A stretch of 64,000 bases of DNA, from positions 9,461-73,460 of the forward strand of contig CAVXRE010000015.1 of assembly GCA_963764175.1 (NCBI GenBank), read 5' to 3'. The position numbers and the translations under genes were made by a program. Shown in pieces: positions 1,929 to 24,522 of the stretch. Source of the DNA: an uncultured Verrucomicrobiae bacterium (GTDB lineage Bacteria > Verrucomicrobiota > Verrucomicrobiia > Limisphaerales > UBA11358). Numbering within the stretch: the stretch's first letter is position 1; each line of letters opens with the position of its first letter. The notes under the pieces were generated by a model. The model was given only the letters and a program-made list of their open reading frames with translations, did no database searches and had not been told where the DNA came from.

Positions 1929-3013
1929 GTGCCGGAGTTCTCCTTCCGAAAGGGAATGACCAACCTTACCAGCAATCCGCCTCCCGGCGCGTCGCGCAAT
2001 TCGAAGCCATGGGCCTCGCCGTGGAGCGTTCGCAGGCGCGCCCGCGTGTTTGACAAACCAACCCTTTCTTCGGACGGCACATCTTTCCGGAGGCCGGCGC
2101 CGTTGTCGCACACCTCCAGCACCAGCGTGCCCGCCTCGCGTTTTGCCCGCAACTCGACGCGGCCGGGTTTGGCGTGAGGTTCGATGCCGTGACGGATCGC
2201 ATTTTCCACGAGCGGCTGCAAAATCAGGTTGGGCACCCGGGCATCGAGGGTGTCCGGAGCGATGTCCGTCTTGACGGACAACCGGCTGCCAAACCGGGTC
2301 TGCTCGATTTTCAGATAACGCTGGAGGAATTCCAGCTCCTGGCGCAAAGTCACCTCCTGCGTATCGGAACTGTCCAGGGCAGTCCTCAAAAGGTCGCTCA
2401 ACTGGGTGATCATCCCATCCGCCGCCTCGATGTCCTGATGCATGAGCGAGGAAATGGAGTGCAATGTGTTGAAGAGAAAATGCGGATTCAACTGCATCTG
2501 GAGCGCCTGCAGTTTCGCCTGGGCCAGTTGCTTCTCCAGTTCCATTGTTCGCAATTCGCGCTCCCGGTATTTCCGGTAATAGTCGAACGCAAAGCTGACC
2601 GCGACAATGACCCAGTAGATGAGGAGGTTGAAATGCCAGGTTTTTACGAGCAGCGGCTGGAAGGCCTCAACAAAACTCGCCTCACTCTGCCAGCGCCCCA
2701 CCCAGGCCCGCAGAATCATGTAGCCCAGCGAAAACACCAAACTGGCGGGCAGATGCACGGCAAGGCTCCGCGCACGGTTTCCGGACTCAAAATCAAACCG
2801 GCGCGCCAGCCAGACGACCGGGATGGACAGCACCGCGAACACGTACCAGTCGCCCAGCGCGTAGCTGACGGCCTGTTTCCAGGTCACCTCCAATCCCGCC
2901 TTCGCGCTGGAAATGTAAAACTGAAACGCGAAGGACAACCCGATCAGCGTCCAAAAAACAAACCAAAGCAGCCATTTGATCCAGCGACTTTGCAAGACGT
3001 TCTTGATTGTCAT
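1925..3013 (-). CDS. LytS/YehU-family sensor histidine kinase
   Basis: About 4 N-terminal TM helices, LQMQLNPHFLFNTL H-box, LQPLVENAIRHG, DNGAG, GLSNTRARL. Confidence 0.95.
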   Translation of the reverse strand: MTIKNVLQSRWIKWLLWFVFWTLIGLSFAFQFYISSAKAGLEVTWKQAVSYALGDWYVFAVLSIPVVWLARRFDFESGNRARSLAVHLPASLVFSLGYMILRAWVGRWQSEASFVEAFQPLLVKTWHFNLLIYWVIVAVSFAFDYYRKYRERELRTMELEKQLAQAKLQALQMQLNPHFLFNTLHSISSLMHQDIEAADGMITQLSDLLRTALDSSDTQEVTLRQELEFLQRYLKIEQTRFGSRLSVKTDIAPDTLDARVPNLILQPLVENAIRHGIEPHAKPGRVELRAKREAGTLVLEVCDNGAGLRKDVPSEERVGLSNTRARLRTLHGEAHGFELRDAPGGGLLVRLVIPFRKENSGT

Positions 3014-3060
3014 GTTGCCTGATGTTCCGGTTGCTGGTAAAAGCTATAACCGATTTCAAG

Positions 3061-4863: not shown

Positions 4864-5328
4864 CTACTCGGTCTGCGCATCGTAAGGGCGGATTTCCGAA
4901 TGCCGGATTTGGCCGCCGAGATGGGCCGTCCATGTCACCAGACTGCCGACCACCAACGCGCCGGCAAGCAACAGCACGCTGAACCAGCCGGCGACGGCCC
5001 GGCCCCGGAACAGAATCAATCCCGCCAGCGCCGCAATTCCGAGCACGATGCAACCTGCCAGCGTCACTCCCGCAGCCGCCTGATGTTGTTCGAGGATGTG
5101 GTCCGAGAAGCCTGGCAAACCTTTAACCACGCCTGCGGCTGTTCCGCCGGTCAGATATAACGGCACGGCCAGGATTGCGGCCAGGACGAACATGGCCAGC
5201 GCCGCCTTCTGGATGTCATGGCTCGCGCGCCAAACCCCGTAAGCCAGCCAGCCCAATCCAAACAGGATGGCCAGAACTGGAACGTGGCACAGAACCAGAT
5301 GAATATGCGCGGCAGTGACCGGATTCAT
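4864..5328 (-). CDS. 4-TM membrane protein, DUF2231-like (possible heme b binding)
   Basis: HIHLVLCHVP, LEQHQAAA and TAHLGGQIRHSEIR motifs with hydrophobic helices. Confidence 0.6.
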   Translation of the reverse strand: MNPVTAAHIHLVLCHVPVLAILFGLGWLAYGVWRASHDIQKAALAMFVLAAILAVPLYLTGGTAAGVVKGLPGFSDHILEQHQAAAGVTLAGCIVLGIAALAGLILFRGRAVAGWFSVLLLAGALVVGSLVTWTAHLGGQIRHSEIRPYDAQTE

Positions 5329-5398: not shown

Positions 5399-5995
5399 TT
5401 AAAACTCCAGCGGCACGCGCACGACCAGGCCGCCCATCACATCACCAGTTTTGAAATCCTTCTTTGGACTGGCCGGGTTCCGGTTGTGGCAGTCGGCGCA
5501 GGCATTGACGGTGGCCACCTCGGCATAGACGGCGGTGAAATATCGGCGGCCCCCGAGTGATTCACGGCCGTAATAATTCAGGCCGGGATGATCGAGAACG
5601 AATTGGAGGCCGGCTTTTTCCGTGTCGGTTTCGGGGGCATTCTTCGGATTGATTGGCCAGAGCGAACGCAGGACGTAATGAAATTCCGCTCCCTGTTGCT
5701 GGACGGATTCAGATGCCTGGCGCAGCATCCGGGCATGGAGCATCATGAGATTTTCGTCCTGCCCCGGCGCGCCCGCCGGCGGGTAATTTTGCAGGACCAG
5801 CCGGGCATAAGTTTCGTGGTCGGCGGCAATCACGGCATGGAGGGCGTCCGCCATTTCCTGCGGTTTGAACGTCACCGCCGATTCCGGCGGCACGGCCGGT
5901 CCGGCAGGTTGCCGCTCGCAACCGGTCCCGGCCAAGACCATCAGTCCGGCCAGAATGAAATTGGAAAGGTTCGTGCGCAGCTTGATTGGGTTCAT
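5399..5995 (-). CDS. DUF3365 / Tll0287-like c-type heme lipoprotein
   Basis: Lipobox-like LAGTGC; motifs SLWPINPKNAP.T..EK.GL, CADCHN (CxxCH) and GDVMGGLVVRVPL. Confidence 0.85.
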   Translation of the reverse strand: MNPIKLRTNLSNFILAGLMVLAGTGCERQPAGPAVPPESAVTFKPQEMADALHAVIAADHETYARLVLQNYPPAGAPGQDENLMMLHARMLRQASESVQQQGAEFHYVLRSLWPINPKNAPETDTEKAGLQFVLDHPGLNYYGRESLGGRRYFTAVYAEVATVNACADCHNRNPASPKKDFKTGDVMGGLVVRVPLEF

Positions 5996-6007: not shown

Positions 6008-7114
6008 CTATTTGTTCACCTGGATCGCGGCGGGAACGAACTGTCCGCCATGGGCTTCGAGCAATTGAAGATTTACCTTCCGGTTGCCCTGGGGGTCAAA
6101 GGTCAAAATTCCGGACGCGCCGGCCAGTGAAAAAGCGAGGGGAAAAGCCTCGTGCGCCGGGCGGTCGCCGGATTGTTTCAGTATGTGGATCAACAACGCG
6201 GCTGCGTCATAAGCCGCCGTCGCCGTCGCATCCGGTTCGTGGCCAAACCGCGCCCGAAAAGCGTCGTTGAAATGTTGAAAGGCGGTTGCGGCATCCTTTT
6301 CCAAAATGGGGGCGGGAACGATGAATCCGTCCATGGCGCCGCCCGCCGCCGCTGCAAAATCCGCTGAGCGCAACCGCCCTGGCCCGGCCAGCGTGCCGTC
6401 AAATCCGGCCGCCCGCAGCGATTTCGCCAGCGTCCCGGCCGTGGCCGGATCCAGCCACAGCAAAATGGCGTCGGGATGAGTTTTAAGAATTTGTCTGCCG
6501 AGCCGCGCCACGTTCGTGAGCGACCGGTTTACTTCCAGGGTTTTCTCAACCGAGCATCCACAAGCCAGCGCGGCTTCGTTGAGGTCACGGGCCGCTTCGC
6601 GTCCGGCGCGTCCGTCGGGAATCACGGCCACCCAATGCCCGGCATGAATGCCCGTAAACAATGTTTTGGCTTCGTCAACGGTGCACGGGACGATGCGCAC
6701 CATCCAGGGGACGCCCGTCTGGCTGACCGAGAAGTCGGCGCACAGGGAAACCACCGGCACAGCGGTGCGGCCGGAGACCTGCAATTCCAGGTGCGATGCC
6801 GCGCCGTCCGGCGGTGCAATCAAACCCAATGCACCGTCGTCGGTAACCATCCGGGCGGCCTCGACGCCATCCGCGCCCCACTGGCCGGTGCGGCCGCGAA
6901 TGACCAGGCTTACACGCGGGCCGGGGGATTGATTGGCCAGTTCCATGCCGAGGGTTGCGCCGTCGCGGAGGCTGGCGGCGGCGGGTTCCTCCGGCGGCAC
7001 GAGCAGGCCGATGACGAGGTTGGTGTTGTCGGCGGACGTTTCATCCGCCCGCAGGCACGCCACACCCGAAATCAGGGCAAGGGCGACCACAGCAAGGCGC
7101 GCGTAAAAAAACAT
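6008..7114 (-). CDS. Periplasmic binding protein type I (LivJ / Peripla_BP_6-like)
   Basis: Signal peptide; IGLLVP..GATLGMELAN, AYDAAALL and GASGILTFDPQGNR. Confidence 0.85.
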   Translation of the reverse strand: MFFYARLAVVALALISGVACLRADETSADNTNLVIGLLVPPEEPAAASLRDGATLGMELANQSPGPRVSLVIRGRTGQWGADGVEAARMVTDDGALGLIAPPDGAASHLELQVSGRTAVPVVSLCADFSVSQTGVPWMVRIVPCTVDEAKTLFTGIHAGHWVAVIPDGRAGREAARDLNEAALACGCSVEKTLEVNRSLTNVARLGRQILKTHPDAILLWLDPATAGTLAKSLRAAGFDGTLAGPGRLRSADFAAAAGGAMDGFIVPAPILEKDAATAFQHFNDAFRARFGHEPDATATAAYDAAALLIHILKQSGDRPAHEAFPLAFSLAGASGILTFDPQGNRKVNLQLLEAHGGQFVPAAIQVNK

Positions 7115-7117
7115 GGA

Positions 7118-8503
7118 TTATTTTTCGGCAGTTTGAGGGAGCTTCGATTTCGGCGCCGGGAAGTAATGCCAGCGGCCTTGCAGGCATTGCGCGTAAACAA
7201 TGGGTGCGATGTTGTCCGAGCGACCGTCGAAGCGCATGTAACCGCACACCCCGTTGTATTCGTTGATGGCTCTCATCTGCTCTTGAATCCGGTAGCGGTT
7301 CGGTCCGGCTTTCTTGATCGCGGCGATGAGCATTTGTGCGCCGTCGTAGGCGTAACCGGCGTAGATGTCCGGCTTCAGGCCGTAACGTTTTTGAAAACAC
7401 GCGACGAAATCGGTCCACGCCGGGTCGGTTTTTTCCGGGTCAAAAAAGTAGGCCGCCGTCGCGCCTTCCGCCGCCGGACCGGCGAGCTTGACGAAGTCCG
7501 GGTCCACGAGCCGGTCAAAGCCATAGAAGGCGGCTTTCAGGCCCGCCGCCCGCAGTTGTACCGCCGCCGCTGCGGTCTCGGCGGGATTCCCCCAGAAGAC
7601 CACGGCGTCCGGATCCGCCTGTTTGATGACGGCGACCTGGGTATCGAACGTGCGGTCGCCTTCCTTGAAATTGATTTCCTGCAACACGGGATGGCCAAGC
7701 CGGCGCACGGCATCCACAAACGGCCGGACACCCATGCGACCCGGACGGCTGTTACCGCGGAACACGACGATTTTGGTCAGGCCGCGTTCCTCGACCATCA
7801 ACCGGGCGAGGAGATAACCCTGCTGACGGTTGTCAGGAAAATCGCGCAACAGCCAGGGAATTTGCGTCTCGGTCAGCGACGGATCGGGATCGGAACAGTT
7901 GACCATGAACGTCTCGGTCTTCAAGACCACCCGCAGCGCGACGTGCGTGGCGTCGCCGTCCACCGTGCCGATGAACGCCAGCACGTTGTTGTCGGCAAAT
8001 TCGACGGCAATGTTCGCCGCGCTGCCCCACTGCGGCGAGTCGGCTTTTTCCATGACCTCGAACGGCAGTTCACCGGGCTGGCGCGCGGCGTTGGCTTCTT
8101 CGATGGCCAGCAGCACGCCTTTCCTGCTCATTTCACCGCGCACGGCTTCCGGGCCGTAGGGCGGGGGGCTGAGCAGGCCGATTTTGAGCGATTTCAAGCC
8201 GGGCGGATCGGGATAATCGCTGCCGGGCCCGCGGAACGGCAGCCGGGTGAGCCAGTAACGGTAGGAGGGTTCGATGTTGCGGTAGGGCAGCATTTCCTCC
8301 GGCACGTTTCCATAGAAGGGATAATCGCCCCCATAAAAAGGATAGCCGCCCTCCGATTTTTGCGCGGGCGGCGTGCCCGGCGGCAGGACCGGCTCGGCAA
8401 TGAAGTTGGTGCTGGGGGTGGTGTCCTCCTTTTCCTCGTAACCGCACCAACCGGCTGGCACAAGGGTCAGCAGGCCGGTCATTATCAGAAACAATTTTTT
8501 CAT
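7118..8503 (-). CDS. Periplasmic binding protein type I (LivJ-like) with N-terminal extension
   Basis: Start ATG 8503 (MKKLFLIMTG) after an AGGAGG RBS; KIGLLSP, LAIEEANA, YAYDGAQML and GVCGYMRFD. Confidence 0.85.
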   Translation of the reverse strand: MKKLFLIMTGLLTLVPAGWCGYEEKEDTTPSTNFIAEPVLPPGTPPAQKSEGGYPFYGGDYPFYGNVPEEMLPYRNIEPSYRYWLTRLPFRGPGSDYPDPPGLKSLKIGLLSPPPYGPEAVRGEMSRKGVLLAIEEANAARQPGELPFEVMEKADSPQWGSAANIAVEFADNNVLAFIGTVDGDATHVALRVVLKTETFMVNCSDPDPSLTETQIPWLLRDFPDNRQQGYLLARLMVEERGLTKIVVFRGNSRPGRMGVRPFVDAVRRLGHPVLQEINFKEGDRTFDTQVAVIKQADPDAVVFWGNPAETAAAAVQLRAAGLKAAFYGFDRLVDPDFVKLAGPAAEGATAAYFFDPEKTDPAWTDFVACFQKRYGLKPDIYAGYAYDGAQMLIAAIKKAGPNRYRIQEQMRAINEYNGVCGYMRFDGRSDNIAPIVYAQCLQGRWHYFPAPKSKLPQTAEK

Positions 8504-8510
8504 GGGCCTC

Positions 8511-9092
8511 CTATTTGACCAGGATGGCAATGGCTTCAATTTCGACGAGCAAATCGCTCCGGCAAAGCCGGGCCTGGATGCCGGTGCTGGCCGGGAATGG
8601 GTCCAGACCCAGGGCGTGGAAAAATTCGTTGCGGATGGAATTGAATTCGCCGTAGTCGCGCTCGATGTCGCGGATGTAACAGGTGGTCCGGACCATGTCG
8701 TGCCAGGTGGCGCCCTCACTGGCGAGCAGGCCGGTGAGGTTGTAATAGGTGCGCCAGAGTTGGGCGCGGAAATCGCCGGGGTAGAGCGTCTCGCCGTCCG
8801 GCCCGATGCTGGCGGTGCCGCTGAAGAGCAGTTGGGTGATGCCGCCGGGCAGGTCCACGCGCAGGCCGCGCACGAAGGCCGCGCCGTAATCGGACGCTTC
8901 GTTCAAGACCTTCGTTTCGGTGATGGCCTTCTTGCCGACCACCTTCCGGCCTTTCGGCAGTTGTTTGATGAGGCCGCCGGGGGCGGGTTCGCACGCCGGC
9001 AGGCCGAGTGCGCGGCGCGCGATTTTTTCCGCGTCGGAATAGTTGATCAGGCGATCCGCCTGGCTGCCGGGGATGATGACGTTTGATTTCAT
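8511..9092 (-). CDS. Rid (YjgF/YER057c/UK114) family protein, FkbO/Hyg5 chorismatase-like subgroup
   Basis: F.RG..LLFSGTASI..GD..AQL..T..N..LL..PASTGIQARLCRSDLLVEIEAIA. No signal peptide. Confidence 0.8.
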   Translation of the reverse strand: MKSNVIIPGSQADRLINYSDAEKIARRALGLPACEPAPGGLIKQLPKGRKVVGKKAITETKVLNEASDYGAAFVRGLRVDLPGGITQLLFSGTASIGPDGETLYPGDFRAQLWRTYYNLTGLLASEGATWHDMVRTTCYIRDIERDYGEFNSIRNEFFHALGLDPFPASTGIQARLCRSDLLVEIEAIAILVK

Positions 9093-9117
9093 AATATGTG
9101 ACCTTTCTAAATTCGGG

Positions 9118-10260
9118 TTATTTCATGTCCGCAACTTTGGTGGATTTCTGTGGCGCGGCAAAAATTGCATGCGACAGTCCGTCGGAGGTGGCGAACCAAG
9201 CTTCCTGGTCGTCGGCCCAGATGCCGAGGACGAAATTGTTCGGAAGGTGGGTGGGCATCGTTCGGGTCTCGACGGGCTGGCCGGGACGCGCGATTTCAAC
9301 GATGCCTGCGCCATTTTCGTCGTTTCGATAATTGACCCAGGTATCGCCGTCGGTGACGGCAATGCCGCGGTCGGTGCCCACCCAGGCGACGTGGCCGCGG
9401 GGCCAGATGAAGTTGACAAAGTTGGAAGGGAGCGGTGATTTTTTCTCCTGCCACGTGCGCCAGCGCGAGCCGTCGTAGCGCGACATGCCAAAATAGGTTC
9501 CCTGCCAAAGGATGCCATCCTCCCAGGCAATCCAGGAAGTGATATCGGCAACCGGGCCGGCATCATGCATGAGTTCAAAGTGAAAATCGCGGTCCGGATC
9601 GCGGTATTCCTTGAAAATCCCGCTGACCGGATTGTACTCGAGAATGCCGCCGCCCCAGACACCCACGAAGACCCGGTCCTTCGCGCCTTTCACCGCATAG
9701 ACCCACGGTTCGTGCATGACGGTGTTGTTCTGGTCGTAAATGCTCCAGGAACCGGTCTTGAGATCCAACGCCCCCAGGCCTGCGGCGGTGGCCACCCAGA
9801 GCGTGTCATCCATGATGTCCAAGCCATAAACGACGTTGTTCGGCAGGCCGCTGTCGGTCTGGGTGTAGGTGGTTATGCGGCCGGCGCTGTAGCGGTTCAA
9901 CCCGCGCATGGTGCCGATCCACATGTCGCCGGTGCGCTTGTCCTCCACCATACACATCACCATCCGGTGACTAAGGCCCTCGTTTGTGCCGATGAGGCGG
10001 AACTTTCCGTCCTCGAGCACCAAGGCGCCGCCGTAGGTGCCCACCCAGAGTTTGCCGTCGCTGGCGCGCAACACGCAGTGGACCTTGTGCGTGGGCATTC
10101 CGTCCTTCATTTGGAAGTTTTCAAACCGGTCAATCAATGGGAATGGCAGGGGCGGGTTGTTCGTCGTGGTATCCGCGGCGCGGACGCCAGGTGCGCCGGC
10201 GAAGGAAAGCAGCAGCGCGATTCCCGCCAGGAGCGTCGGAAAATTTAACTTGGGGTTCAT
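9118..10260 (-). CDS. Stand-alone 'two-component regulator propeller' (Reg_prop) beta-propeller, secreted
   Basis: Signal peptide; repeated LWVGT.GG, GL(S/P).N.V and WIGT.RGL blades; no kinase domain. Confidence 0.8.
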   Translation of the reverse strand: MNPKLNFPTLLAGIALLLSFAGAPGVRAADTTTNNPPLPFPLIDRFENFQMKDGMPTHKVHCVLRASDGKLWVGTYGGALVLEDGKFRLIGTNEGLSHRMVMCMVEDKRTGDMWIGTMRGLNRYSAGRITTYTQTDSGLPNNVVYGLDIMDDTLWVATAAGLGALDLKTGSWSIYDQNNTVMHEPWVYAVKGAKDRVFVGVWGGGILEYNPVSGIFKEYRDPDRDFHFELMHDAGPVADITSWIAWEDGILWQGTYFGMSRYDGSRWRTWQEKKSPLPSNFVNFIWPRGHVAWVGTDRGIAVTDGDTWVNYRNDENGAGIVEIARPGQPVETRTMPTHLPNNFVLGIWADDQEAWFATSDGLSHAIFAAPQKSTKVADMK

Positions 10261-10270
10261 GGTTTTCGGT

Positions 10271-12223
10271 TCAGAGGATTTTCAAGTATTCAACCAGGTC
10301 GTTGAGCTGGATTTTATTCATGTAACTGGTTACGCCGTGCGTATCGTTGGTGCTGTAGAGCGTCCAGATTTCCTCGAGGGACTGCGCGCGGCCGTCATGG
10401 AGATACGGCGCGGTGTCGGCGACGCCCAGCAGATGCGGGGTGTCAAACATTCCCCCGGTGCCGACGTCAAACGACAGCCGCACCGAGTACAGCGGCGGGC
10501 GATGGCAGGTCGCGCACCGGCGTTCGTGCGGGATCTCCTTGCCGGTCGTGGTCATGGTGGCAAAGAAGATGGCCTTGCCGCGTTCCTGCGACGGCGTCAG
10601 TTTTCCGTCCGCGCTGAGGCCCATGACGCGCTGAGGCGGAAGCGACTTGATGAACGTCGTCAGGTCCGACAATTCCTTCGGGGGAATCGGGTCGGTACGC
10701 ATCAGCACCTTGGCGAAGCGCGGGCCGCATTGCACTTCGAGGCTCGGATTTTTCCCGTTCCACTTGAACGGTTCGGTGCCGGCCACGCCCATCAGGCTGC
10801 GGTTGTCGAGCAGGTTGTCGCCAATGCCGGTCGTGTCAAAATCGTAACTCAGGCCGTCCACATGCCCGTCGGGGTGGCAGGAGCGGCAGGAGAATTGATG
10901 CTGGAAGGTGTAAGCCGCCCGGGTGAAAACCCGCTCGCCGCGCCGGATGGGATCGTTCAGTCCGCCGTCGCCCAGCACAATCCGGCCCTGCACCGCCAGG
11001 CTTTTCGCGTCCACCACGAGGATGCTGTCCTGCAACCGTTCGGCGACAAACAAAGTGCCGCCGTCCGGGCTGAGCGTCAGTTGCTTCGGATTGCGCTCGG
11101 TGGGAATGCGGGCGGTGACGTATTCAGGCGAGAGTGACATGTCATAAATCGCCTCCTGTCTGGCCGTGGAGTCCGCTTTTTCCAGCCATCCGGCCAAACG
11201 GTCCAAATCCACGACGGTGACCACATCGCCGCCGCCGGAGGCGACAAAGGCGCGCTGGCCGGCCGGGTCCACCGCAATGCCGGACGGATCGGCAAAATAA
11301 TTGTTGGCCTCGTCGAGCGGCATCTGGATGACATCGCCGGTTTTGGTGTCGGTGACCGCCAGACCGCTCGACATCACCCAGCCATTGGCGACCTGCGTGA
11401 TGGGGACGAGATTGCGCACCTTGACCAGCGGCGTCAGCATCCACGACCGCGTTGGCACGGCGCAGATGGCTTCGGAAAGGTGTGCTGAATCGAGCGCTTC
11501 GCGGCGCACCGTGCGTGCGGTCATGGGATTGATCTCGGTGATTTCCGACGCGGGAATGGTTTTGACCGAGACCAGCCGGACCATGCGATTGGCGACGAAG
11601 GCGCGGGTTCCATCCGGCGCAACCGCCACGGCAAACGGCTCACGACCCGCCGATGGCCGGCCCAATTCCCGCAACGGCGAGACGGAGAGGACGGAAATGT
11701 CGTCGGACATGGAATTGGCCACCACCAAGCGGTCGCCGGCCGCAGTGCGGCAAAAGGCCACGGCCACCGGTGCCATGCCCACGGCGATTGAGCCGGTTTC
11801 CTGAAGCGTTTGCGTGTCCAGCACCGCCAGCCGGTCGCCGGCCCGGCAGGTGACGAAGAGATTTTTCCCGGCCGTGTCCAGGGCCAGTCCAAACGGCCGG
11901 CCAGGCACCGTGACCCGGCGCAGGACCTGCCGCGTGGCGGTGTCCGCCTCGGCCACTTGGTCGCGGTCATCCAGGGCGATGTAAATGTTGCGGCCATCCG
12001 GTGAAACCACCAGGCCGGCCGGTGCGTCGTGATGCGGGCGGGGCTGGGCCCAGCGCAACCGTGACGTGGAAACGAGGTGACAATTGTAGCAGGTGACGCT
12101 GGTGAGGTTTTTCTGGCCGGACATCTCGCGCATGTGGTCAATCCAGTAGTATTGCCTGAGCCAGAGCGCGACACCGGCGAGGCCCGCCACGACTAGCACG
12201 ATGATGATGAGGCGCTTTTTCAT
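10271..12223 (-). CDS. Membrane-anchored tri-heme protein: CxxCH + YVTN beta-propeller + di-heme CcP/MauG-like domain (HzsB-HzsC fusion-like)
   Basis: N-terminal TM helix; CYNCH (12077-12091); YVTN blades (VANSMSDDISV, SPDGGTLFVA); CRSCH (10874-10888); CATCH (10502-10516); FDTPHL..APYLHDG; HGVTS..DLVEYLKIL. Confidence 0.8.
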   Translation of the reverse strand: MKKRLIIIVLVVAGLAGVALWLRQYYWIDHMREMSGQKNLTSVTCYNCHLVSTSRLRWAQPRPHHDAPAGLVVSPDGRNIYIALDDRDQVAEADTATRQVLRRVTVPGRPFGLALDTAGKNLFVTCRAGDRLAVLDTQTLQETGSIAVGMAPVAVAFCRTAAGDRLVVANSMSDDISVLSVSPLRELGRPSAGREPFAVAVAPDGTRAFVANRMVRLVSVKTIPASEITEINPMTARTVRREALDSAHLSEAICAVPTRSWMLTPLVKVRNLVPITQVANGWVMSSGLAVTDTKTGDVIQMPLDEANNYFADPSGIAVDPAGQRAFVASGGGDVVTVVDLDRLAGWLEKADSTARQEAIYDMSLSPEYVTARIPTERNPKQLTLSPDGGTLFVAERLQDSILVVDAKSLAVQGRIVLGDGGLNDPIRRGERVFTRAAYTFQHQFSCRSCHPDGHVDGLSYDFDTTGIGDNLLDNRSLMGVAGTEPFKWNGKNPSLEVQCGPRFAKVLMRTDPIPPKELSDLTTFIKSLPPQRVMGLSADGKLTPSQERGKAIFFATMTTTGKEIPHERRCATCHRPPLYSVRLSFDVGTGGMFDTPHLLGVADTAPYLHDGRAQSLEEIWTLYSTNDTHGVTSYMNKIQLNDLVEYLKIL

Positions 12224-13683
12224 CAGTTGGATTTGGTTTGGGCCGTCCCGGTATTTTTCAGTGCCACCGATGTTATCGGCACACTCACGGCCAGGGGACG
12301 ATGGTTGTGCGGCGCATGGTTGCGCGGTTCGTGACAGCCGATGCAGGCGCGGTTTTCAGCCGGCCGCACCCAGAACATCGGCGCTTCGTACCGCAGTACC
12401 CGACCGTTTTCATCGAGTGTTTCGAAACCGAGCGGGACATCAGCCGGCACTTCTGCCAGAAACGAACCATCGGTTTGAACCGGCACCTCGCCGAGCGAGC
12501 TGACCTTCCCCGGCGACGTTTCCGCGAGCATACGAATATGGGTGGCCACGGGCATTGCTCCGGCCACGGGGTCGCTGGAAAAATTCGCGTTCAGGCAGAG
12601 GATTTTTCCGGTTGATTTTGTTGGGTCCATGCCCGAAATCCGGCCCATGGGACTTGGGCGTGAGGCCAATTCGACCGCTTCACAATCATTCCACGCGGGA
12701 TCCGCCAGGAGCGGCGTGTCCAATGTGGTCGCGGTCGAACCCACCCGGAACAGCGCGAGTGAAGTTCCAGCACCCGGTGGGTTTTCAGCGCACACCAGCA
12801 AATCGCCATTGCCGGCAGGTTGCACCGAGCTGACCCGGCCGGTGACACCGGGAAACAGCGGTGTGCGGCCCTGAAATGGCCGGGCCAGGCGTACCAATTC
12901 CGGCACGCCGCCCGGTAAGACGGAACCGGACTTTGAGACCAGAAAGACGATGCGGCCATCGTTGAGCAACCGGGGCTGCTGGATGACGGAGTCGGGAGAT
13001 TCCGGGCTGGCGAAGGCGGTGATTTCCGTGCCGTCGTTGTTGATCGTAAACAGGGCCGGGCCGGAGGTGGAGTTGACCGATTCCGGCGATGGGGTTGAGA
13101 CAAACAGGATTCTTCCGTCGCCCAACATCGTTGGCTCGGTGATGCCGCGGGAGCTGAAGGTCAACAGGTGCGGCGGGCTGCCGGCTGGTTGAACATAAAG
13201 CGCGGACGGTGGCTGGCCGGGATTGATTCCGCCGCTTTTGGGCACTGGCGAGGCGAACACCAGGCTTCCGTTCGGAAGCAACGCCGGACTCATGGCACCA
13301 CCGGGAATCGAGGTCAACTGCTGAAGCCGGCCATCCGCCAAATCCTCCTGATAAATCTGCCACTCCGCGGTGGAACTCGTTTTGCCCGCAAAAAAAACGC
13401 GCCGGCCATCGTAGGAAACCACCGGATCACCGGCAGCGGTCAAACCTTCGGAAAGCACCTGAACACGGCCGGAACCCAACGGCGCTTCGATTAGTACGAC
13501 GCGGCTGCCAGGCGGATAACGCAAATCCAAAATATCAGAGGCCGGAGTCACGGCGGCGTTGACCGGCGATTGCGTGAGGATCAGCGCGCCGACGGGCGGC
13601 ATGGGTTTGCGGCAGCCGGCGCCCGCCAGCAAAACGAGGCCGGCGGCAAGCATGGAAATTTTAAAATGGCTGGCGGGGTTCAC
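12223..13683 (-). CDS. Hydrazine synthase alpha (HzsA)-like lipoprotein: TolB-like propeller + HZS_alpha middle domain with one CxxCH
   Basis: Probable GTG start at 13683 with LAGAGC lipobox. DPVVSYDGRRVFFAG..WQIY and LFTINNDGT propeller motifs; LGEVPVQTDGSFLAEVPADVPLGFETLDENG..WVRPAENRACIGCHE. TGATG overlap with the next gene. Confidence 0.85.
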   Translation of the reverse strand: MNPASHFKISMLAAGLVLLAGAGCRKPMPPVGALILTQSPVNAAVTPASDILDLRYPPGSRVVLIEAPLGSGRVQVLSEGLTAAGDPVVSYDGRRVFFAGKTSSTAEWQIYQEDLADGRLQQLTSIPGGAMSPALLPNGSLVFASPVPKSGGINPGQPPSALYVQPAGSPPHLLTFSSRGITEPTMLGDGRILFVSTPSPESVNSTSGPALFTINNDGTEITAFASPESPDSVIQQPRLLNDGRIVFLVSKSGSVLPGGVPELVRLARPFQGRTPLFPGVTGRVSSVQPAGNGDLLVCAENPPGAGTSLALFRVGSTATTLDTPLLADPAWNDCEAVELASRPSPMGRISGMDPTKSTGKILCLNANFSSDPVAGAMPVATHIRMLAETSPGKVSSLGEVPVQTDGSFLAEVPADVPLGFETLDENGRVLRYEAPMFWVRPAENRACIGCHEPRNHAPHNHRPLAVSVPITSVALKNTGTAQTKSN

Positions 13684-13685
13684 GT

Positions 13686-15410
13686 TTATTGCCGTTCGCC
13701 GGGTTCGCGGACCTTGAGGATTTGATCCACCTTGACGTTGGTCAGTTCCTGAACCTGTTTGCTCGGCCACAGGATTTCGATGCGATCCACGTTGGTCGCC
13801 TGGCCCAGACCGAAGTGTGGCCGACGGTCGCTTTGCATGAGGAAGCCCGACGCGCAGCGCGCTTCGGCAAAATAGGTTTTGCCGCCGGCGGTGACCTTCA
13901 CTTTTGCGCCGAAGCCGTCACGGTTGCTCTTCGTGCCTTCGAGATCGAGCGTAATCCAGTGGTTGCCGGATTTGTCCCGGTTGCGGAGCAGGAAAGGCCG
14001 GTTGCCAATCGTGGTGACGATGATGTCCATGTGGCCATCATTGTTGTAATCCGCCACGGCGCTGCCACGGGCGTTGATTTTGGTTTTGAAATATGCGCCG
14101 CCCCTGGCCGCCGCGTCCGTGAAAGTGCCGTCGCCCCGGTTTTCCAGCAGCAAACTTTCCCAGCCGACAAGGTAATGCGGATCGCCGTTGGCAATAAAGA
14201 TGTCGAGCTTGCCGCTGTTGTCGTAGTCCAGAAAGCAACCGCCCCAGCCGACAAATTGCGCGGTCAGTGAACCGAGACCCGACGCCATCATGCGGTCGTC
14301 AAAAATCCCGTTGGTCGTGCCCATATAAAGCGAGCCGTAGCCCAGCCGGGTGACGAGAATGTCTTCGATGCCGTCGTTGTTGCAGTCGCCGATGGTGGCG
14401 GCCATGGAACCGGCGGCCTCGCCCATCGCGTTGAAGGCCACGCCGGCCTGCAGCGCCCTGTCCTGGAAATGGCCCTTGCCGTCGTTCACCAGCAGCAGGT
14501 TCGGCGTGCCGTCATCCGAAATGTAAAGGTCCGGCGCGCCATCGTTGTTGTAGTCGAACATGGCCACGGACATCGCCCGGTGCCCGGGAATTTCGATGCC
14601 GGAAGATTTGCTGACGTCCTCGAACGTGCCGTCGCCGCGATTGTGATACAGCTTGTTGAATTGCGGTTTATAGGAAAGCGGGCCGGGATAGGCGTCGGGG
14701 TTGTAGTAAAGCTGATAGCTGGGATCGAAGGTGAGGTAGTTCGCGACAAAGAGGTCGAGTTTGCCGTCATTGTCCGCGTCGAAAAAGACCGCGCCGATGC
14801 CCGTGCCGCCGATATTCCCAACACCGGCCTTTTCCGTGACATCTTCGAACGTGCCGTCACCGCGATTGTGGAAAAGATAGGAACGTCCCACGCCGACGAC
14901 ATAAAGGTCGGTGTGGCCGTCGTTGTCATAATCGCCGGCGACGGCGGCGGTGCAATAGCCGAGGCCGCCCAACCCGGCCTTTTCCGTGACGTCCTCGAAC
15001 GTTCCATCGCCGCGATTGCGGTAAAGCCGCGGCCCCACGCGGGCCGTGCCGGGCGCATGATGCGTGACGCCATCGAGCGGGCCGGAGTTCACCAGGAACA
15101 AATCCATATATCCGTCGCCGTCGTAGTCCAGCCAGCACCCGCCCGCGCCGTTGGACTCGATAATGTTCGCAATTTTTGTGTCGCAGAACTGGTTGACGAA
15201 TTGAATGCCGGCCTGGATGGTGACATCCTCGAACAAATCATCCGGCCCGGCGGGAATCGGCGGAATGACTGCCAGCGCTGGAATCGGCAAGGGTGTCGAG
15301 CCGGCGGCACGGCCGGTGAGATGTCGATTGACCGCAACGGCAACCAGTGCCAGGGCCAGGCAGGCGGCACCGAGGGCGGCGATTTTGCAGAAGAAACATT
15401 TGTTGTTCAT
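13686..15410 (-). CDS. CRTAC1-family FG-GAP / ASPIC-UnbV protein, first gene of the operon
   Basis: ATG 15410; signal/anchor; DYDGDG and DYDNDG repeats; LEGTKSNRDGFGAKV..HFGLG..WPS. Confidence 0.9.
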   Translation of the reverse strand: MNNKCFFCKIAALGAACLALALVAVAVNRHLTGRAAGSTPLPIPALAVIPPIPAGPDDLFEDVTIQAGIQFVNQFCDTKIANIIESNGAGGCWLDYDGDGYMDLFLVNSGPLDGVTHHAPGTARVGPRLYRNRGDGTFEDVTEKAGLGGLGYCTAAVAGDYDNDGHTDLYVVGVGRSYLFHNRGDGTFEDVTEKAGVGNIGGTGIGAVFFDADNDGKLDLFVANYLTFDPSYQLYYNPDAYPGPLSYKPQFNKLYHNRGDGTFEDVSKSSGIEIPGHRAMSVAMFDYNNDGAPDLYISDDGTPNLLLVNDGKGHFQDRALQAGVAFNAMGEAAGSMAATIGDCNNDGIEDILVTRLGYGSLYMGTTNGIFDDRMMASGLGSLTAQFVGWGGCFLDYDNSGKLDIFIANGDPHYLVGWESLLLENRGDGTFTDAAARGGAYFKTKINARGSAVADYNNDGHMDIIVTTIGNRPFLLRNRDKSGNHWITLDLEGTKSNRDGFGAKVKVTAGGKTYFAEARCASGFLMQSDRRPHFGLGQATNVDRIEILWPSKQVQELTNVKVDQILKVREPGERQ

Positions 15411-15510
15411 AAGAAAATGCCGGATGCCGGCGTGAAGCAATGACCGGTGCCGGGCCGTTTGACGATGGAGCACAGCTTGATGGCCGGCACCGAGTCTTGT
15501 GAAATCAGCT

Positions 15511-15619: not shown

Positions 15620-15803
15620 AGCCAAAGCCGGGTTTTTTGATGTATCGGCCGCAACCAGCAACGGAAACGTCACGGGATTGGGCCCTTTGGCGGATCCTCC
15701 AGTTTGCGCTTTTCCTCCGGCCGGTTTCACGGTTAAGTAGGCGTGAATCACTCATCACGGTGTAAAACCATGAACCGTGGGAGCGAATGAACCTGTTCGG
15801 CCT

Positions 15804-18800
15804 ATGTCAAAGCGTTTGATTTTAATCATCTTGGGTCTCGCCCTTGCGGGACTGGGCATCTTTTTGTTGCGGCCGGCTGGAGAGGGAGATGGCTTCACCC
15901 GTTTGATGTCGCGCGGCAACGGTTATCTGGAGAAAGGCGACGCCACCAATGCCATCGCCACCTACCTGCAAGTGGTGAAACTGGCGCCGGACAATCTCGA
16001 CGCGCGATTGAATCTGGCCAACGCCTACCTGCTGGCTGATGACAGTTCAAACGTGGTTGAACAGTGCCGCCAAGCCATCAATCTGGATCAGAACAGCGCG
16101 GCGGCTTATTACTTGATGGGCTGCGCTTATTTGCGGTCGAACCAGGCCGAACCGGCCGTTCAGGCGTTCCAGCAATCCGGGCAAATTGACAATGCGGTGA
16201 CCGCGCTGCATTTCCAGTTGGGCCTGGCCCAGACGCGTTTGGGGCGCCTCGACGACGCCATCAGCGAATTTGAAACTGTACTGCGGTTTGAACCGGAGCA
16301 TCCGTCCGTCCACTATCAACTCAGCCTGCTTTACGGGCGTGTCGGACGCCCGGAGGATGCCGCGCGGGAAATGCAGAAGCACCAGGAAATCCTGGCCAAA
16401 AATCCCGGCGGCGCAAGTGGTCCGGCCACCTTCGAGCGCTGCAAATACACGCAGCCGCAGATTGCATTCAAACTCGAAGAACCCGACCGGCGCGGTGTTC
16501 CGGTGCATTTCACGGATGCCACTTCCACCGCCTTCAGCCAGCCGTCAGATTTTCACGGGCCGATGGGCGTGCTGGATTACAACCACGACGGACGCAACAG
16601 CCTGTTTGTGACGGAAGGCGAAAAAGGATTCCGCGTCTTGGACAATCAAAACGGACATTTCAAACCGCTGGGCGAAATTTTGCCGGGCAAGCCGGGTGCA
16701 AATTATCGCCGCTGCCTGGTGGGCGACGTCAACAATGACCGCTTTGACGACGTGATTGTGCTGGGTGAGCAGGCGTCTCACGCATTCAAATTCGCGACCA
16801 ACGGCCAGTGCCGTGAGGTGACCGCGTTTGCCGGACTGAAAAATTTGAAGGCAAGCGACGGCCTGCTGGCCGATCTCGATTTCACCGGCAAACTCGATTT
16901 GCTGGCGGTTGCGCCGGATGGCAGCGGGCTGTCCGTCTATCAGAACCTTGGAAGTTTCTACTTTCAGGACAATACGGAGGCATCAGGCCTGCCTGCGGCG
17001 TTTGCAGGCGTGGAGCATGTTGCCGTGGATGATTGGAACAACGAAGACGTGCCGGGTGTTTTTGTCACCCGCACCGGCAAGCCGCCCGTTTTCTTTCCAA
17101 AACAACGCGCGGGTTCGTTCTTGTTGACCAATTCACCGGCGGATTGGCCGGTCGGCAACGTCATCGCCACCGGCGATCTCAATAATGATTTGCGAGACGA
17201 CCTCGTCGTGGCCGGTGACAGTGAAATTACCATCATTTATGGCGGCATGACGGAACGGGTGACCCTGCCGTTGCACGGATTGCAGGTGAAAGGAATCTTG
17301 CTCGTGGATTATGACAACGACGGGTGGCTGGATGTGATTGCTTACGGCAACGGCGTGCGAGCCTGGCGCAATCTGGGCCGGGCCGGTTTCGCTGATGTCA
17401 CCGCCGGGCTTGGTCTCGATAAAATCGGCCCCGTGGATGAATTGGTGGCGGCGGATTTTACCGGCGACGGCGCCACTGACCTGATCGCCAGCACACCCAA
17501 CGGCCTGCGATTTTTGAGAAATGACGGCGGCAACGCTAACCGTCAACTGAAGCTGCGGCTGGCGGGCAATCGTTCCAACGCCAGCGCGTTCGGTGTGCGC
17601 GTCGAACTGACGGCCGGCAACTGGCGGACGATCCGCACACTGCAACAACTGCCCCTGGAAATCGGGGTCGGCAAACACGACAAGATAGACGCTCTCAAAA
17701 CGCGCTGGTTCGACCTCTCCAGCACGCTGGTGGACGTGGCGGTTCCCACCAATCAATTGACGCTCGACGAGCTGACCCTCCCCACCGGCTCGTGCCCGTA
17801 TCTTTATGCCTGGGACGGCCAGCGATTCAAATTTGTGACCGACATTCTCGGCGCTTCACCACTGGGATTGCCGGTCAGCAAGAAGCGCTACATCGAATCC
17901 GATCCGGAGGAATTTCTGGCATTGGGAGACGAACAACAATTTCCGGCGAAAAACGGCGCGTACGAAGTCAGAATCACCGAGGAACTCCGCGAGGTGCTTT
18001 ATCTCGACGAAGCCCGGTTGGTGGTGGTGGATCATCCAGCCGGAACACTGGTTTGCCCGACGAGCAAATTGCGTCCCGGCAAACCATTCCCGCCTCACGA
18101 ACTCTGGACTTTGCGCCCGGTGGCTCCCCTCAAACAAGCCATCCGCAGCGACGGTCTGGATGTGACCGAGGCATTGGCGAAGACGGATGGCAGGATGGTT
18201 TCGCCGGTGCGCTTGCGCGAGCCGCAATTGCGCGGGCTGGCCGAACCGTTTTCCGTCACGATGGATTTTGGCGAATTGCCGGTTGACCGCCCGCTCGTCC
18301 TCGTCCTCAACGGATGGCTGCGCTTCGGCGGCGGCATGGCAAATGTGGCGGCCTCGCTGGACCCAAACCTGCCATTTCCGTTTCCGACGCTCGAAGCGGA
18401 GATGCCGGATGGTTCGTGGAAGAAAATTGACACCGACGTTGGCGCGCCTGCGGGCAAGACCAAGACCATCCTCGTTGACCTGGACAAAAAGCTTCCGCCG
18501 GGCGCGCGCTGGCTCCGGCTGACGACGGCATTCGAGATTTATTGGGACTCCGCCAGCCTGTGCGAGAAGGTTTTGGCTGATCAGAATCACCAAATCACTT
18601 TGGCTCCCGGTCACACGGATTTGCACTGGCGGGGATTCAGCGAGTTTGCTCCCCTGCCCTCCTCGCAGCCGCTCACGCCGGTTTACGACCGGCCTCGCTC
18701 CGAGCCGCCCTGGCGGCGCACGCCGTCCGGCTGGTGCACGCGGTATGGTCCGGTGGACGAACTGCTCCAAAAAAGCGACGACGCGCTGGTGTTGATGAAT

Positions 18801-19079
18801 GGCGGCGATGAACTTGCCCTTTCGTTCTCATCTGCTCAACTGACGCCGAAACCGGCGGGATTTGTCCGCGACTTTTTCCTTTATGCCGTTGGCTGGGACA
18901 AGGACGCGGATTTTCACGTCGGCCAAGGCTGGCGGGTTGAACCGCTGCCGTTCCATGGCATGGACGATCAGGCATACGACCACCAGCAGCGCCCGGCGGG
19001 GATCGACGACGGCTGGATTGAAAAATACAACACACGCTGGGTGGGGCCGATGGTATTGAGCAAAAGCAAGCCATTCTGA
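15804..19079 (+). CDS. TPR + FG-GAP + ASPIC/UnbV protein with a large uncharacterised C-terminal domain
   Basis: N-terminal TM helix, about 5 TPRs, DxNNDx repeats, LAGNRSNASAFG, then GSCPYLYAWDG..ITEELREVLYLDE..GWDKDAD. Confidence 0.85.
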   Translation: MSKRLILIILGLALAGLGIFLLRPAGEGDGFTRLMSRGNGYLEKGDATNAIATYLQVVKLAPDNLDARLNLANAYLLADDSSNVVEQCRQAINLDQNSAAAYYLMGCAYLRSNQAEPAVQAFQQSGQIDNAVTALHFQLGLAQTRLGRLDDAISEFETVLRFEPEHPSVHYQLSLLYGRVGRPEDAAREMQKHQEILAKNPGGASGPATFERCKYTQPQIAFKLEEPDRRGVPVHFTDATSTAFSQPSDFHGPMGVLDYNHDGRNSLFVTEGEKGFRVLDNQNGHFKPLGEILPGKPGANYRRCLVGDVNNDRFDDVIVLGEQASHAFKFATNGQCREVTAFAGLKNLKASDGLLADLDFTGKLDLLAVAPDGSGLSVYQNLGSFYFQDNTEASGLPAAFAGVEHVAVDDWNNEDVPGVFVTRTGKPPVFFPKQRAGSFLLTNSPADWPVGNVIATGDLNNDLRDDLVVAGDSEITIIYGGMTERVTLPLHGLQVKGILLVDYDNDGWLDVIAYGNGVRAWRNLGRAGFADVTAGLGLDKIGPVDELVAADFTGDGATDLIASTPNGLRFLRNDGGNANRQLKLRLAGNRSNASAFGVRVELTAGNWRTIRTLQQLPLEIGVGKHDKIDALKTRWFDLSSTLVDVAVPTNQLTLDELTLPTGSCPYLYAWDGQRFKFVTDILGASPLGLPVSKKRYIESDPEEFLALGDEQQFPAKNGAYEVRITEELREVLYLDEARLVVVDHPAGTLVCPTSKLRPGKPFPPHELWTLRPVAPLKQAIRSDGLDVTEALAKTDGRMVSPVRLREPQLRGLAEPFSVTMDFGELPVDRPLVLVLNGWLRFGGGMANVAASLDPNLPFPFPTLEAEMPDGSWKKIDTDVGAPAGKTKTILVDLDKKLPPGARWLRLTTAFEIYWDSASLCEKVLADQNHQITLAPGHTDLHWRGFSEFAPLPSSQPLTPVYDRPRSEPPWRRTPSGWCTRYGPVDELLQKSDDALVLMNGGDELALSFSSAQLTPKPAGFVRDFFLYAVGWDKDADFHVGQGWRVEPLPFHGMDDQAYDHQQRPAGIDDGWIEKYNTRWVGPMVLSKSKPF

Positions 19080-22603: not shown

Positions 22604-22933
22604 TGCGTCCGACGAATAACATTACACACCGAACACCGAGCGCCCGGTGATTCATTTGAACTTCACCGGATTAAGTCTCTAACCGAAGCTTTGAACACGA
22701 GTTGATAGTTGCGATTGGGCAGATTTTTGAGAAGGCGTTGGCGAAAAAAATGGAAAGTCTGAAAGGCGGCGACAAACTGCGGTAAACCGTGCCGGACACA
22801 ACGCTGGACGCGATGTAACTCAACATATATTGTCATGCAAAATGGCAAAATGCGGTTTGGTTTTGTTGTATCTTTGCCAATTTTCACGACGTCTATTTGT
22901 TTGAATGCAACGAAAGCGTATCGCCCAGCGCAT

Positions 22934-24508: not shown

Positions 24509-24522
24509 AACCGAGTAATGTT

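Follow-up and report, generated by a model that had tools for sequence, protein, structure and literature searches.

A probable non-anammox homolog of hydrazine synthase, of the clade III type, in a conserved gene cluster of a soil and peat Verrucomicrobium

Hydrazine synthase (HZS) was, to our knowledge, long held to be without relatives, and its origin has been an open question. Two publications describe homologs of it. Suarez et al. 2023 (FEMS Microbiol Lett, PMC10732223) found, in the part of the article available to us, that metagenome-assembled genomes (MAGs) of the non-anammox Phycisphaerae lineage UBA1845 carry fused hzsBC-like genes with an hzsA-like gene upstream of them, and propose a wider family of HZS-like enzymes with other substrates. 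Hagglund et al. 2025 (Genome Biol Evol 18:evaf244, PMC12758564), as far as the accessible text goes, sorted co-localized HZS-like alpha and fused beta-gamma genes into clades I–IV, stated that these homologs cannot make hydrazine and rejected an anammox function. In their clade III, a gene for an FG-GAP protein of the CRTAC1 family is followed by alpha, beta-gamma and two genes for substrate-binding proteins of ATP-binding cassette (ABC) type. The alpha protein of this clade lacks heme alpha-II and the C-terminal part, and beta-gamma contains one extra heme motif. A Trp takes the place of gamma His144, and neither the loop Glu nor alpha Cys303 is conserved. The paper also names Opitutus terrae, a cultured carrier of the related cluster. 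Here, we describe a gene pair of this kind in a stretch of 64,000 nucleotides (nt) from an uncultured Verrucomicrobiae bacterium (contig CAVXRE010000015.1, positions 9,461 to 73,460), which is referred to below as the window. The pair is probably a non-anammox homolog of HZS of the clade III type, embedded in a conserved, periplasm-facing cluster that comprises up to nine genes in a soil or peat Verrucomicrobium. Homologs of this kind are known from the two publications of 2023 and 2025, to which the locus adds a further member and not a novel type. New here are the extent of the conserved cluster in Verrucomicrobiota MAGs (up to nine genes), a large family of short alpha proteins, and the coverage of parts of the cluster in RNA libraries.

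The two genes are located on the minus strand of the window, with the following features (lengths in amino acids, aa):

12223..13683, minus strand: alpha gene, HzsA-like, 486 aa from a GTG start; probable lipoprotein signal, TolB-like propeller and HZS_alpha middle domain with a single heme
12331..12345, minus strand: the sole CXXCH of alpha (CIGCH, residues 447–451), equivalent to the heme alpha-I motif of HzsA and aligned with CSGCH of 5c2v_A
12221..12225, minus strand: TGATG stop/start overlap of alpha and beta-gamma, read from the sequence
10271..12223, minus strand: beta-gamma gene, 650 aa; N-terminal hydrophobic helix and HzsB-like propeller fused to an HzsC-like di-heme domain
12077..12091, minus strand: extra N-terminal heme motif CYNCH (residues 45–49), right behind the hydrophobic helix; C45, C48 and H49 invariant in 14/14 sequences
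10979..12037, minus strand: seven-bladed YVTN propeller, residues about 63–415; the profile alignment spans positions 13–349 of 5c2v_B and includes loop R270–S285
10274..10978, minus strand: di-heme domain of the CcP/MauG superfamily, residues 416–650, with CRSCH (10874–10888), CATCH (10502–10516), Trp488 and Cys499, by alignment to 5c2v_C

The plus strand reads CATCA at 12221–12225, and the alpha stop codon and the beta-gamma ATG share one base on the minus strand. The open reading frame (ORF) that holds alpha extends over 12223..13770 (minus strand), and its GTG codon at 13681–13683 lies 2 nt past the TAA (13686–13688) of the upstream FG-GAP gene. A GTG start of alpha that overlaps the stop of the upstream gene is likewise found in one of the related loci described below (L002), and GTG 13681–13683 is the most likely start. 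In the 486-aa form that results, the N-terminal signal ends in LLAGAGC, and by the lipobox rule alpha is a probable lipoprotein. The alpha translation contains the motif LGEVPVQTDGSFLAEVPADVPLGFETLDENGRVLRYEAPMFWVRPAENRACIGCH, and the beta-gamma translation contains SADGKLTPSQERGKAIFF, FDVGTGG, FDTPHLL, PYLHDGRAQSL, NDTHGVTSY and NDLVEYLKIL. An earlier note on this DNA had described two translationally coupled genes with a TGATG overlap and had quoted a series of motifs; direct reading of the sequence bears out the coupling, and every quoted motif is found in the two translations. The same note had described the second protein as a propeller fused to a di-heme domain. This architecture stands, whereas the CXXCH count of beta-gamma is three and not two (CYNCH 45–49, CRSCH 446–450 and CATCH 570–574), which brings the c-heme motifs of the pair to four (1 + 3).

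In sequence and in fold, Kuenenia stuttgartiensis HzsABC (5C2V/5C2W) is the best solved relative of every module of the pair. The best NCBIfam models are hydrazine_alpha (E = 2.8e-20), hydrazine_BC (6.2e-49), hydrazine_beta (1.5e-38) and hydrazine_gamma (2.7e-18). In phmmer searches of the Protein Data Bank (PDB), the top relatives are 5c2v_B (2.4e-34), 5c2v_C (4.3e-15) and 5c2v_A (3.5e-13), and family profiles built from 14 orthologs match the same chains with E-values of 6.3e-27 for 5c2v_A, 1.2e-40 for 5c2v_B and 3.8e-21 for 5c2v_C. The AlphaFold model of alpha (52-sequence alignment; predicted local distance difference test, pLDDT, 83; predicted template modeling score, pTM, 0.84) has 5c2v_A and 5c2v_D as its top Foldseek matches (E = 8.8e-23, TMq 0.71–0.73, 553 columns), followed by TolB (1.1e-9). 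For the beta-gamma propeller, the top match is 5c2v_B (E = 3e-29, target-normalized TM 0.89, root-mean-square deviation 2.4, 351 columns). The identity in the structural alignments to 5C2V is 19–25%. Homologous alpha, beta and gamma modules are thus encoded together in the window, and the claim of an alpha/fused beta-gamma architecture homologous to HZS holds at the level of sequence (NCBIfam, PDB profiles) and of fold (Foldseek). The Kuenenia enzyme and the window pair have in common an alpha propeller with a heme in the middle domain, a seven-bladed beta propeller with an inserted loop, a di-heme gamma domain and a Cys at position gamma-165. They differ in gene order, which is beta, gamma, alpha in anammox bacteria according to the available text of PMC12758564 and alpha, fused beta-gamma in the window, and in the extra N-terminal heme and hydrophobic helix of beta-gamma.

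The di-heme domain carries the features of the CcP/MauG superfamily, i.e. a match to Pfam CCP_MauG (PF03150) above the gathering cut-off (34.5 bits versus 25.6, over part of the profile), two CXXCH motifs and a conserved inter-heme Trp (Trp488). Two CXXCH motifs in a CcP-type domain and the inter-heme Trp are also shared with bacterial di-heme CcP, MauG and MbnH. Unlike these enzymes and the tri-heme peroxidase YhjA of Escherichia coli, however, the window domain shares its polypeptide with a propeller and has an HzsA-like heme protein as its partner. Its affinity was judged by profile scores, in place of a tree with anammox Hzs, MauG and CcP. By these scores, HzsC (3.8e-21) is its closest solved relative, ahead of every CcP, MauG or MbnH structure; outside HZS, the best-scoring di-heme enzymes are MbnH (6e1c, 5.6e-5) and CcP (1zzh, 5.2e-4). 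The likeness to HzsC that the earlier note had proposed for this C-terminus agrees with this result. A sequence search with the gamma domain gave 458 matches. The 120 that were listed are all fragments of the same fused family, and their names are 'cytochrome c peroxidase' or 'YVTN family beta-propeller protein'. In the AlphaFold structure predicted for beta-gamma, only the propeller is confident (di-heme domain, residues 439–637, pLDDT <50).

Among 122 aligned alpha sequences (the window protein and the 121 of the 150 best alpha-profile representatives that are 440–570 aa long), the CXXCH motif is kept in all 122, and exactly one such motif is present in 119 of the 121 representatives. Glu443, Arg445 and Asn460, which lie near the heme motif, are invariant (Asn460 in 121/122), and the family alignments contain no conserved sixth heme ligand among the invariant residues. 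Outside the heme motif, Cys363 (ILCLNAN; about 12595–12597 of the window) is invariant in 52 close homologs and present in 108 of the 122 aligned sequences. Most close alpha homologs carry PF26549 in precomputed Pfam annotation, and the local Pfam run did not report this domain for the window protein. In beta-gamma, loop R270–S285 is the counterpart of the HzsB tunnel loop, and its residues are very conserved.

Judged from its sequence, the pair is not a hydrazine synthase, because its NCBIfam scores fall below the cut-offs, the heme alpha-II domain is absent and catalytic residues are replaced. The scores lie 7–11 times under the equivalog cut-offs of the four models (NF052339–NF052342; alpha 71.8 versus 800, BC fusion 166.8 versus 1250, beta 132.8 versus 560, gamma 66 versus 625). 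Since the alpha protein ends 35 residues after its only CXXCH, the C-terminal domain of the bis-His heme alpha-II, with the second CXXCH, is absent. In the gamma domain, with the register of 5c2v_C set on Cys102, Cys105 and His106, His144, which in HZS stands in for the Trp of CcP and MauG at the heme gamma-I pocket, corresponds to Trp488 (PFKWNG), which is invariant in 14/14 sequences, and Asp168 corresponds to Phe503 within the invariant QCGPRFA (Phe in 14/14). The counterpart of Cys165 is Cys499, found in 13 of 14 orthologs, and by alignment it would be the residue for a third covalent heme link. The HzsB tunnel loop itself, where a conserved Glu marks the Mg site in HZS, is kept and highly conserved, and its two Glu residues are replaced by Gln277 and Ala279. 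The HzsA Cys near position 303, where Cys303 and His587 form a Zn site in HZS, corresponds to Glu228, with Cys there in 0/14 sequences. HMMER alignments of alpha to HzsA end at the CXXCH, short of Tyr591, which is the proximal ligand of heme alpha-I in HZS, and the accessible text of PMC12758564 describes a 2-residue gap at Tyr591 in clades I–III. Anammox genomes also encode hydrazine dehydrogenase and other octaheme enzymes of the HAO type. A match to PF13447 (multiheme proteins of the HAO type) was found neither in the window's own genome (96.7% complete) nor in any of 14 control genomes, and with the controls negative the search is uninformative on this point. The earlier expectation of a 'complete' HZS-like complex therefore fails, as alpha lacks the heme alpha-II domain and several residues linked to HZS catalysis are replaced. 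That the pair is a working HZS whose host carries out a cryptic, anammox-like formation of N–N bonds is extremely improbable. The retained Cys499 and the match of the three modules to HzsA, HzsB and HzsC as their best database relatives would fit such an enzyme, but the sub-cut-off scores, the loss of the alpha-II domain, the changes of His144 to Trp and Asp168 to Phe, the non-conserved beta-loop Glu and alpha Cys303 residues, and the Verrucomicrobiota relatives of the host all stand against it, as do the gap at Tyr591 and the rejection of an anammox function for these clades in what is available of PMC12758564.

The features in which the pair departs from HZS match those given for clade III in the accessible text of the same study: the order of FG-GAP, alpha, beta-gamma and two binding-protein genes, the short alpha, the one extra heme and the residue changes are all the same, and no architectural difference was found from the clade as described there. 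By architecture, and not by a tree, the window pair thus matches a member of clade III. Genes for Reg_prop, RidA-like, Tll0287-like heme and four-helix proteins, all present in the window, are not mentioned in the main text of that paper (PMC12758564), and an equivalent of gamma Cys165, found here in 13 of 14 sequences, is stated there for clade I only, as far as the text could be followed. The UBA1845 genes of Suarez et al., set beside the window by their description in the available text, belong to Planctomycetota from a marine tunnel biofilm, in genomes that also contain hao, nxr and other anammox-related genes.

Alpha and beta-gamma very likely form a membrane-tethered periplasmic complex in which two heme sites face a shared cavity, as in HZS, without making hydrazine. 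When alpha (residues 26–470) and beta-gamma (107–650) were co-folded, the complex prediction score was 0.83, compared with 0.00 for the best of three controls; 58 of 80 solved complexes score at or above the mark, against 2 of 110 mismatched pairs, and these counts are only a rough guide here, as our own alignments were used. The runs share at least 96% of their contacts, and the partner's pLDDT is at least 88. On the alpha side, the confident contacts are formed by the tail after the heme motif (453–467) and residues 346–364, and on the beta-gamma side by loop 268–285, which includes the conserved loop residues, by residues 359–366 and by gamma segments 461–471 and 501–512 that flank Cys499. 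The predicted contacts correspond to the arrangement expected from HZS, with the beta loop placed between the two active-site hemes, and the modeled alpha/beta-loop/gamma interface is similar to that of the Kuenenia enzyme. An HZS-like interface, which the earlier note had proposed to look for, is thus predicted. Because 5C2V is a solved complex of the same kind, the pass may stem from the predictor's memory of that structure, and the prediction shows likeness, not binding by this particular copy. Alpha residues 360, 362 and 364, the neighbors of Cys363, fall in the predicted interface.

The pair is part of a minus-strand cluster, the other members of which, together with a divergent neighbor, are listed below:

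13686..15473, minus strand: FG-GAP/UnbV_ASPIC protein (CRTAC1-like), first gene of the cluster; Pfam FG-GAP_3 6.2e-53, UnbV_ASPIC 6.3e-21
9118..10260, minus strand: secreted Reg_prop beta-propeller protein; Pfam Reg_prop 3.1e-12
8511..9092, minus strand: RidA/L-PSP-like protein with an N-terminal extension of about 85 aa; Pfam Ribonuc_L-PSP 2.3e-16
7118..8503, minus strand: type I periplasmic binding protein 1 (Peripla_BP_6), probable lipoprotein; Pfam 2.4e-42
6008..7114, minus strand: type I periplasmic binding protein 2 (Peripla_BP_6); Pfam 1.9e-27
5399..5995, minus strand: Tll0287-like c-type heme protein (CADCH), probable lipoprotein; Pfam Tll0287-like 2.5e-17
4864..5328, minus strand: small four-helix membrane protein, possibly DUF2231-like; from the sequence, seen in 3 loci that reach this far
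15777..19079, plus strand: TPR and FG-GAP protein of 1100 aa, divergently transcribed; Pfam, adjoins the cluster in 8 of 16 close loci

The genes follow one another in the order FG-GAP/UnbV, alpha, beta-gamma, Reg_prop, RidA-like, two Peripla_BP_6, Tll0287-like and four-helix, with gaps of 2–70 nt. The start of binding protein 1 was placed at Met73 of its ORF, from where homologs begin to align. Signal, lipoprotein or membrane segments are present in all products of the cluster but one, the RidA-like protein, in which no signal peptide is visible and which is probably cytoplasmic. The four-helix protein gave no Pfam match even at E-values up to 5, and the ESM Atlas provides a lead only (score 0.94, with DUF2231 on 15–25% of cluster members).

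A synteny scan of 185,579 species genomes yielded 16 loci, 15 of which are labeled as Verrucomicrobiota lineages and one as Limnocylindrales. An FG-GAP ortholog is found directly upstream of alpha in 16/16 loci, and beta-gamma is adjacent to alpha in all 15 loci that extend past alpha (the 16th ends inside it), so the two genes are conserved neighbors, as the earlier note required of a genuine pair. Reg_prop follows beta-gamma in 15/15 loci, binding protein 1 is present in 15/15, binding protein 2 and the RidA-like gene each in 12/15 (the latter missing in 3), and the Tll0287-like gene in 8/16, several loci ending earlier. Identity to the window proteins across the loci is 39–76% for alpha and 55–89% for beta-gamma. 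Within the same class, a more distant type was found in three genomes (3 of 4 distant loci), in which alpha, FG-GAP/UnbV, beta-gamma, Reg_prop and two binding-protein genes occur together; its alpha is 27% identical and has one CXXCH, and its beta-gamma is 41–42% identical in ORFs with 6 or 10 CXXCH. A TPR and FG-GAP gene lies near the distant clusters in 3/3 cases (52–58% identity). The gene order of this type is the clade I order in the available text of PMC12758564. Reg_prop, the binding proteins and the TPR and FG-GAP protein accompany both the close and the distant types, with Reg_prop following beta-gamma in the three more distant clusters as well. The fourth distant alpha-like match (G257) is an ORF of 1330 aa without a beta-gamma neighbor.

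Three observations concern individual records and neighbors. The locus with the Candidatus Limnocylindrales label (L008; contig of 143,509 bases) contains a complete copy of the cluster, with 48% identity in alpha and 71% in beta-gamma. Limnocylindrales are a Chloroflexota lineage, and the copy could be a binning error or a case of gene transfer. In L003, beta-gamma (9445–11393), and in L006, alpha (8001–9447), matches occur in two adjacent pieces in different frames, which suggests frameshifts or assembly errors in these records. A second flanking FG-GAP protein, with an UnbV_ASPIC domain, is encoded at 3007–4851 (plus strand), and the one at 15777–19079 (plus strand) has N-terminal TPR repeats, so that three CRTAC1-like/FG-GAP proteins lie within 16 kb.

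The composition of the cluster bears on what the complex may do. An unlikely explanation is a MauG-like maturation system or one resembling an amine dehydrogenase, in which the di-heme domain would use H2O2 or O2 to oxidize residues of a partner protein (alpha, FG-GAP or one of the binding proteins). Such a reaction would yield a cofactor made from protein residues, or else an oxidized amine or amino acid; in the latter case, the LivJ-type binding proteins would supply the substrate and the RidA-like protein would remove imine products. Trp488 is placed where CcP and MauG have their catalytic Trp (PMC12758564, in the text available), weak matches to models of MbnH, MauG and the beta subunit of quinohemoprotein amine dehydrogenase were obtained, a chain of the last enzyme (1jju_B) is at rank 6 in Foldseek, and the conservation of binding protein 1 (15/15), binding protein 2 (12/15) and the RidA-like gene (12/15) would suit such a system. 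The MauG and MbnH model scores, however, are far under their cut-offs and under the HzsC scores, the RidA-like protein lacks a visible signal peptide, is probably cytoplasmic and is missing in 3 of 15 loci, and no candidate for a small subunit bearing the cofactor was seen.

The Tll0287-like heme protein, of a family presumably associated with sensors, and a histidine kinase (His_kinase and HATPase_c) with a LytTR response regulator, encoded at 1182–3013 (minus strand) just beyond the cluster, could be read as signs of a non-catalytic module that transfers electrons or senses redox state for the FG-GAP/TPR proteins or for this two-component system. We consider such a role very unlikely: the gamma-I-type heme retains its extra Cys, and the alpha heme, with no conserved sixth ligand, looks catalytic rather than relay-like.

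For the complex itself, we tentatively favor, at odds somewhat below even, a reductive, peroxidase-like role in which membrane electrons would be passed to a small oxidant. It is favored because the membrane helix, the N-terminal heme and the two CcP-type hemes with their Trp parallel YhjA, in which an added N-terminal heme likewise lies beside a membrane helix. For YhjA, which has a transmembrane helix, electrons from the quinol pool have been proposed to enter via the N-terminal heme (PMC10301912, from the part of the article available). By analogy, electrons could reach the window complex from the membrane, either from the quinol pool or from a small cytochrome and possibly via the four-helix protein and the Tll0287-like heme protein, and would enter at the N-terminal heme of beta-gamma. 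They would then pass through the second CcP-type heme and the conserved Trp488 to the presumably Cys-crosslinked heme equivalent to gamma-I, where a small oxidant would be reduced, most likely peroxide or else an N-oxide such as nitric oxide (NO) or hydroxylamine. The His-ligated alpha heme, with Glu443, Arg445 and Asn460 beside it, may serve as a second reaction site or a relay, and both reaction-type hemes would open onto a cavity gated by loop 270–285. The FG-GAP, Reg_prop and binding proteins probably assist as partners that handle the substrate or provide a scaffold.

Several points weigh against this proposal. The chemistry assigned to this group of proteins is drawn from analogy only. 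The co-folded model contains no hemes, and blade 1 and the N-terminal heme segment of beta-gamma, the presumed electron entry, were cut from it to keep within a limit of 1000 residues. As the model of the gamma domain is unreliable, its heme pockets were read from sequence alignments alone. Asp168 has been proposed, in a 2025 spectroscopic study (PMC12607021, as far as accessible), as the proton supplier at heme gamma-I, and its replacement by Phe argues against an HZS-like reduction of NO at this heme. Finally, the LivJ-type binding proteins and the RidA-like protein are unexplained by a role as a peroxide or NO reductase and hint at an organic, possibly amine-type substrate. Because the binding, RidA-like, FG-GAP and Reg_prop proteins find no explanation in the reductive model, the MauG-like, amine-related and organic-substrate alternatives are kept under consideration. 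Comparison of binding proteins 1 and 2 with solved structures gave distant relatives only, so no ligand was assigned to them.

A further reading, which we regard as improbable, is that the complex is a two-site periplasmic heme enzyme that makes or breaks an N–N or N–O bond on a non-anammox nitrogen compound fed to it by the LivJ-type binding proteins, and that it is a living, widespread relative of the ancestor of HZS in Verrucomicrobiota, active in peat and soil under oxic or micro-oxic conditions. Candidate substrates would be NO, hydroxylamine, or an amino-acid derivative of the N-hydroxy or hydrazine type. The presumably Cys-crosslinked heme, the gated beta loop and the open pocket of the alpha heme (Glu443, Arg445, Asn460) are compatible with such chemistry.

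The distribution of the family and the habitat of the host were also analyzed. In the window's own genome (3.5 Mb, 19 contigs), a single HZS_alpha match and two matches to PF01578, which represent cytochrome c maturation genes, were found. A PF03150 scan of the same genome gave no match, although the beta-gamma protein contains the domain according to hmmscan, and this result says nothing about other peroxidases. The alpha profile matched 25,905 cluster representatives (50% identity) at E ≤ 1e-3, 4,359 at E ≤ 1e-10 and 741 at E ≤ 1e-30. Among 401 sampled genomes of the phylum, in contrast, only 10 had a match to it at E ≤ 1e-20, and the sole close one was in the window's own genome; the distribution of alpha within the phylum is patchy. 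The Pfam HZS_alpha match that the earlier note had suggested looking for is present in the window protein (E = 3.4e-16, profile positions 42–98 of 98); on its own it is unspecific, and it was therefore not used as evidence for an HZS-like complex. The domain was detected in 60 of the 301 genomes sampled from the phylum. Many copies are often present in one genome, up to 16 or more, and most of them lie in long ORFs (800–1700 aa, often 1000 aa or longer; for example in genomes G197, G226, G257 and G287). The Bacteroides thetaiotaomicron control also gives a match. These long ORFs are a different family that has only the heme-binding middle domain in common with the window alpha.

DNA of the window is found in soil, peat, wetland and bog metagenomes, with eight runs from studies P1–P4 that contain at least half of its words. 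Metatranscriptome contigs that are at least 95% alike, from three libraries of two studies, cover parts of alpha, beta-gamma, the RidA-like protein, binding protein 1, Reg_prop and FG-GAP, and one RNA-library contig of 291 nt crosses the alpha/beta-gamma junction with zero differences. The cluster thus appears to be transcribed; RNA libraries may contain DNA, and the contigs are no proof of a single transcript.

These habitats would suit an oxidative, peroxide-driven enzyme that acts on an organic substrate, e.g. phenolic or humic compounds of peat, with the propeller and FG-GAP proteins holding the substrate and the binding proteins capturing the products. The cluster and its flanks encode five proteins of propeller or FG-GAP type that could be enlisted for this role, and among solved structures binding protein 2 is closest to 4ey3 (E = 1.1e-6), presumably an aromatic-acid binding protein. 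We nevertheless find this quite unlikely, as binding protein 2 resembles 4ey3 only weakly, and the extra membrane-proximal heme fits an input of electrons from the membrane better than it fits a peroxygenase.

The published type of homolog is no rarity of a few reference genomes: it occurs in a tightly conserved cluster, belongs to a large family and is carried by Verrucomicrobiota of soil and peat. As a simpler, four-heme version, it could reveal which reactions the HZS scaffold supported before anammox arose, and how this scaffold is used in a common soil lineage.

Elsewhere in the window, hydrolases of glycoside hydrolase (GH) families GH2, GH31 and GH3 and a sodium:solute symporter are encoded, and the host fits a sugar-degrading bacterium of the Planctomycetota–Verrucomicrobiota–Chlamydiota (PVC) group, judging by its gene content. 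The earlier suggestion of a non-anammox, Verrucomicrobiota-like, sugar-degrading host agrees with the Verrucomicrobiota labels of the related loci and with the richness of the window in glycoside hydrolases. At 22835–25872 (plus strand), a PSCyt2/PSD1 (DUF1549/DUF1553) gene precedes one for DUF1501, and such gene pairs are characteristic of the PVC group.

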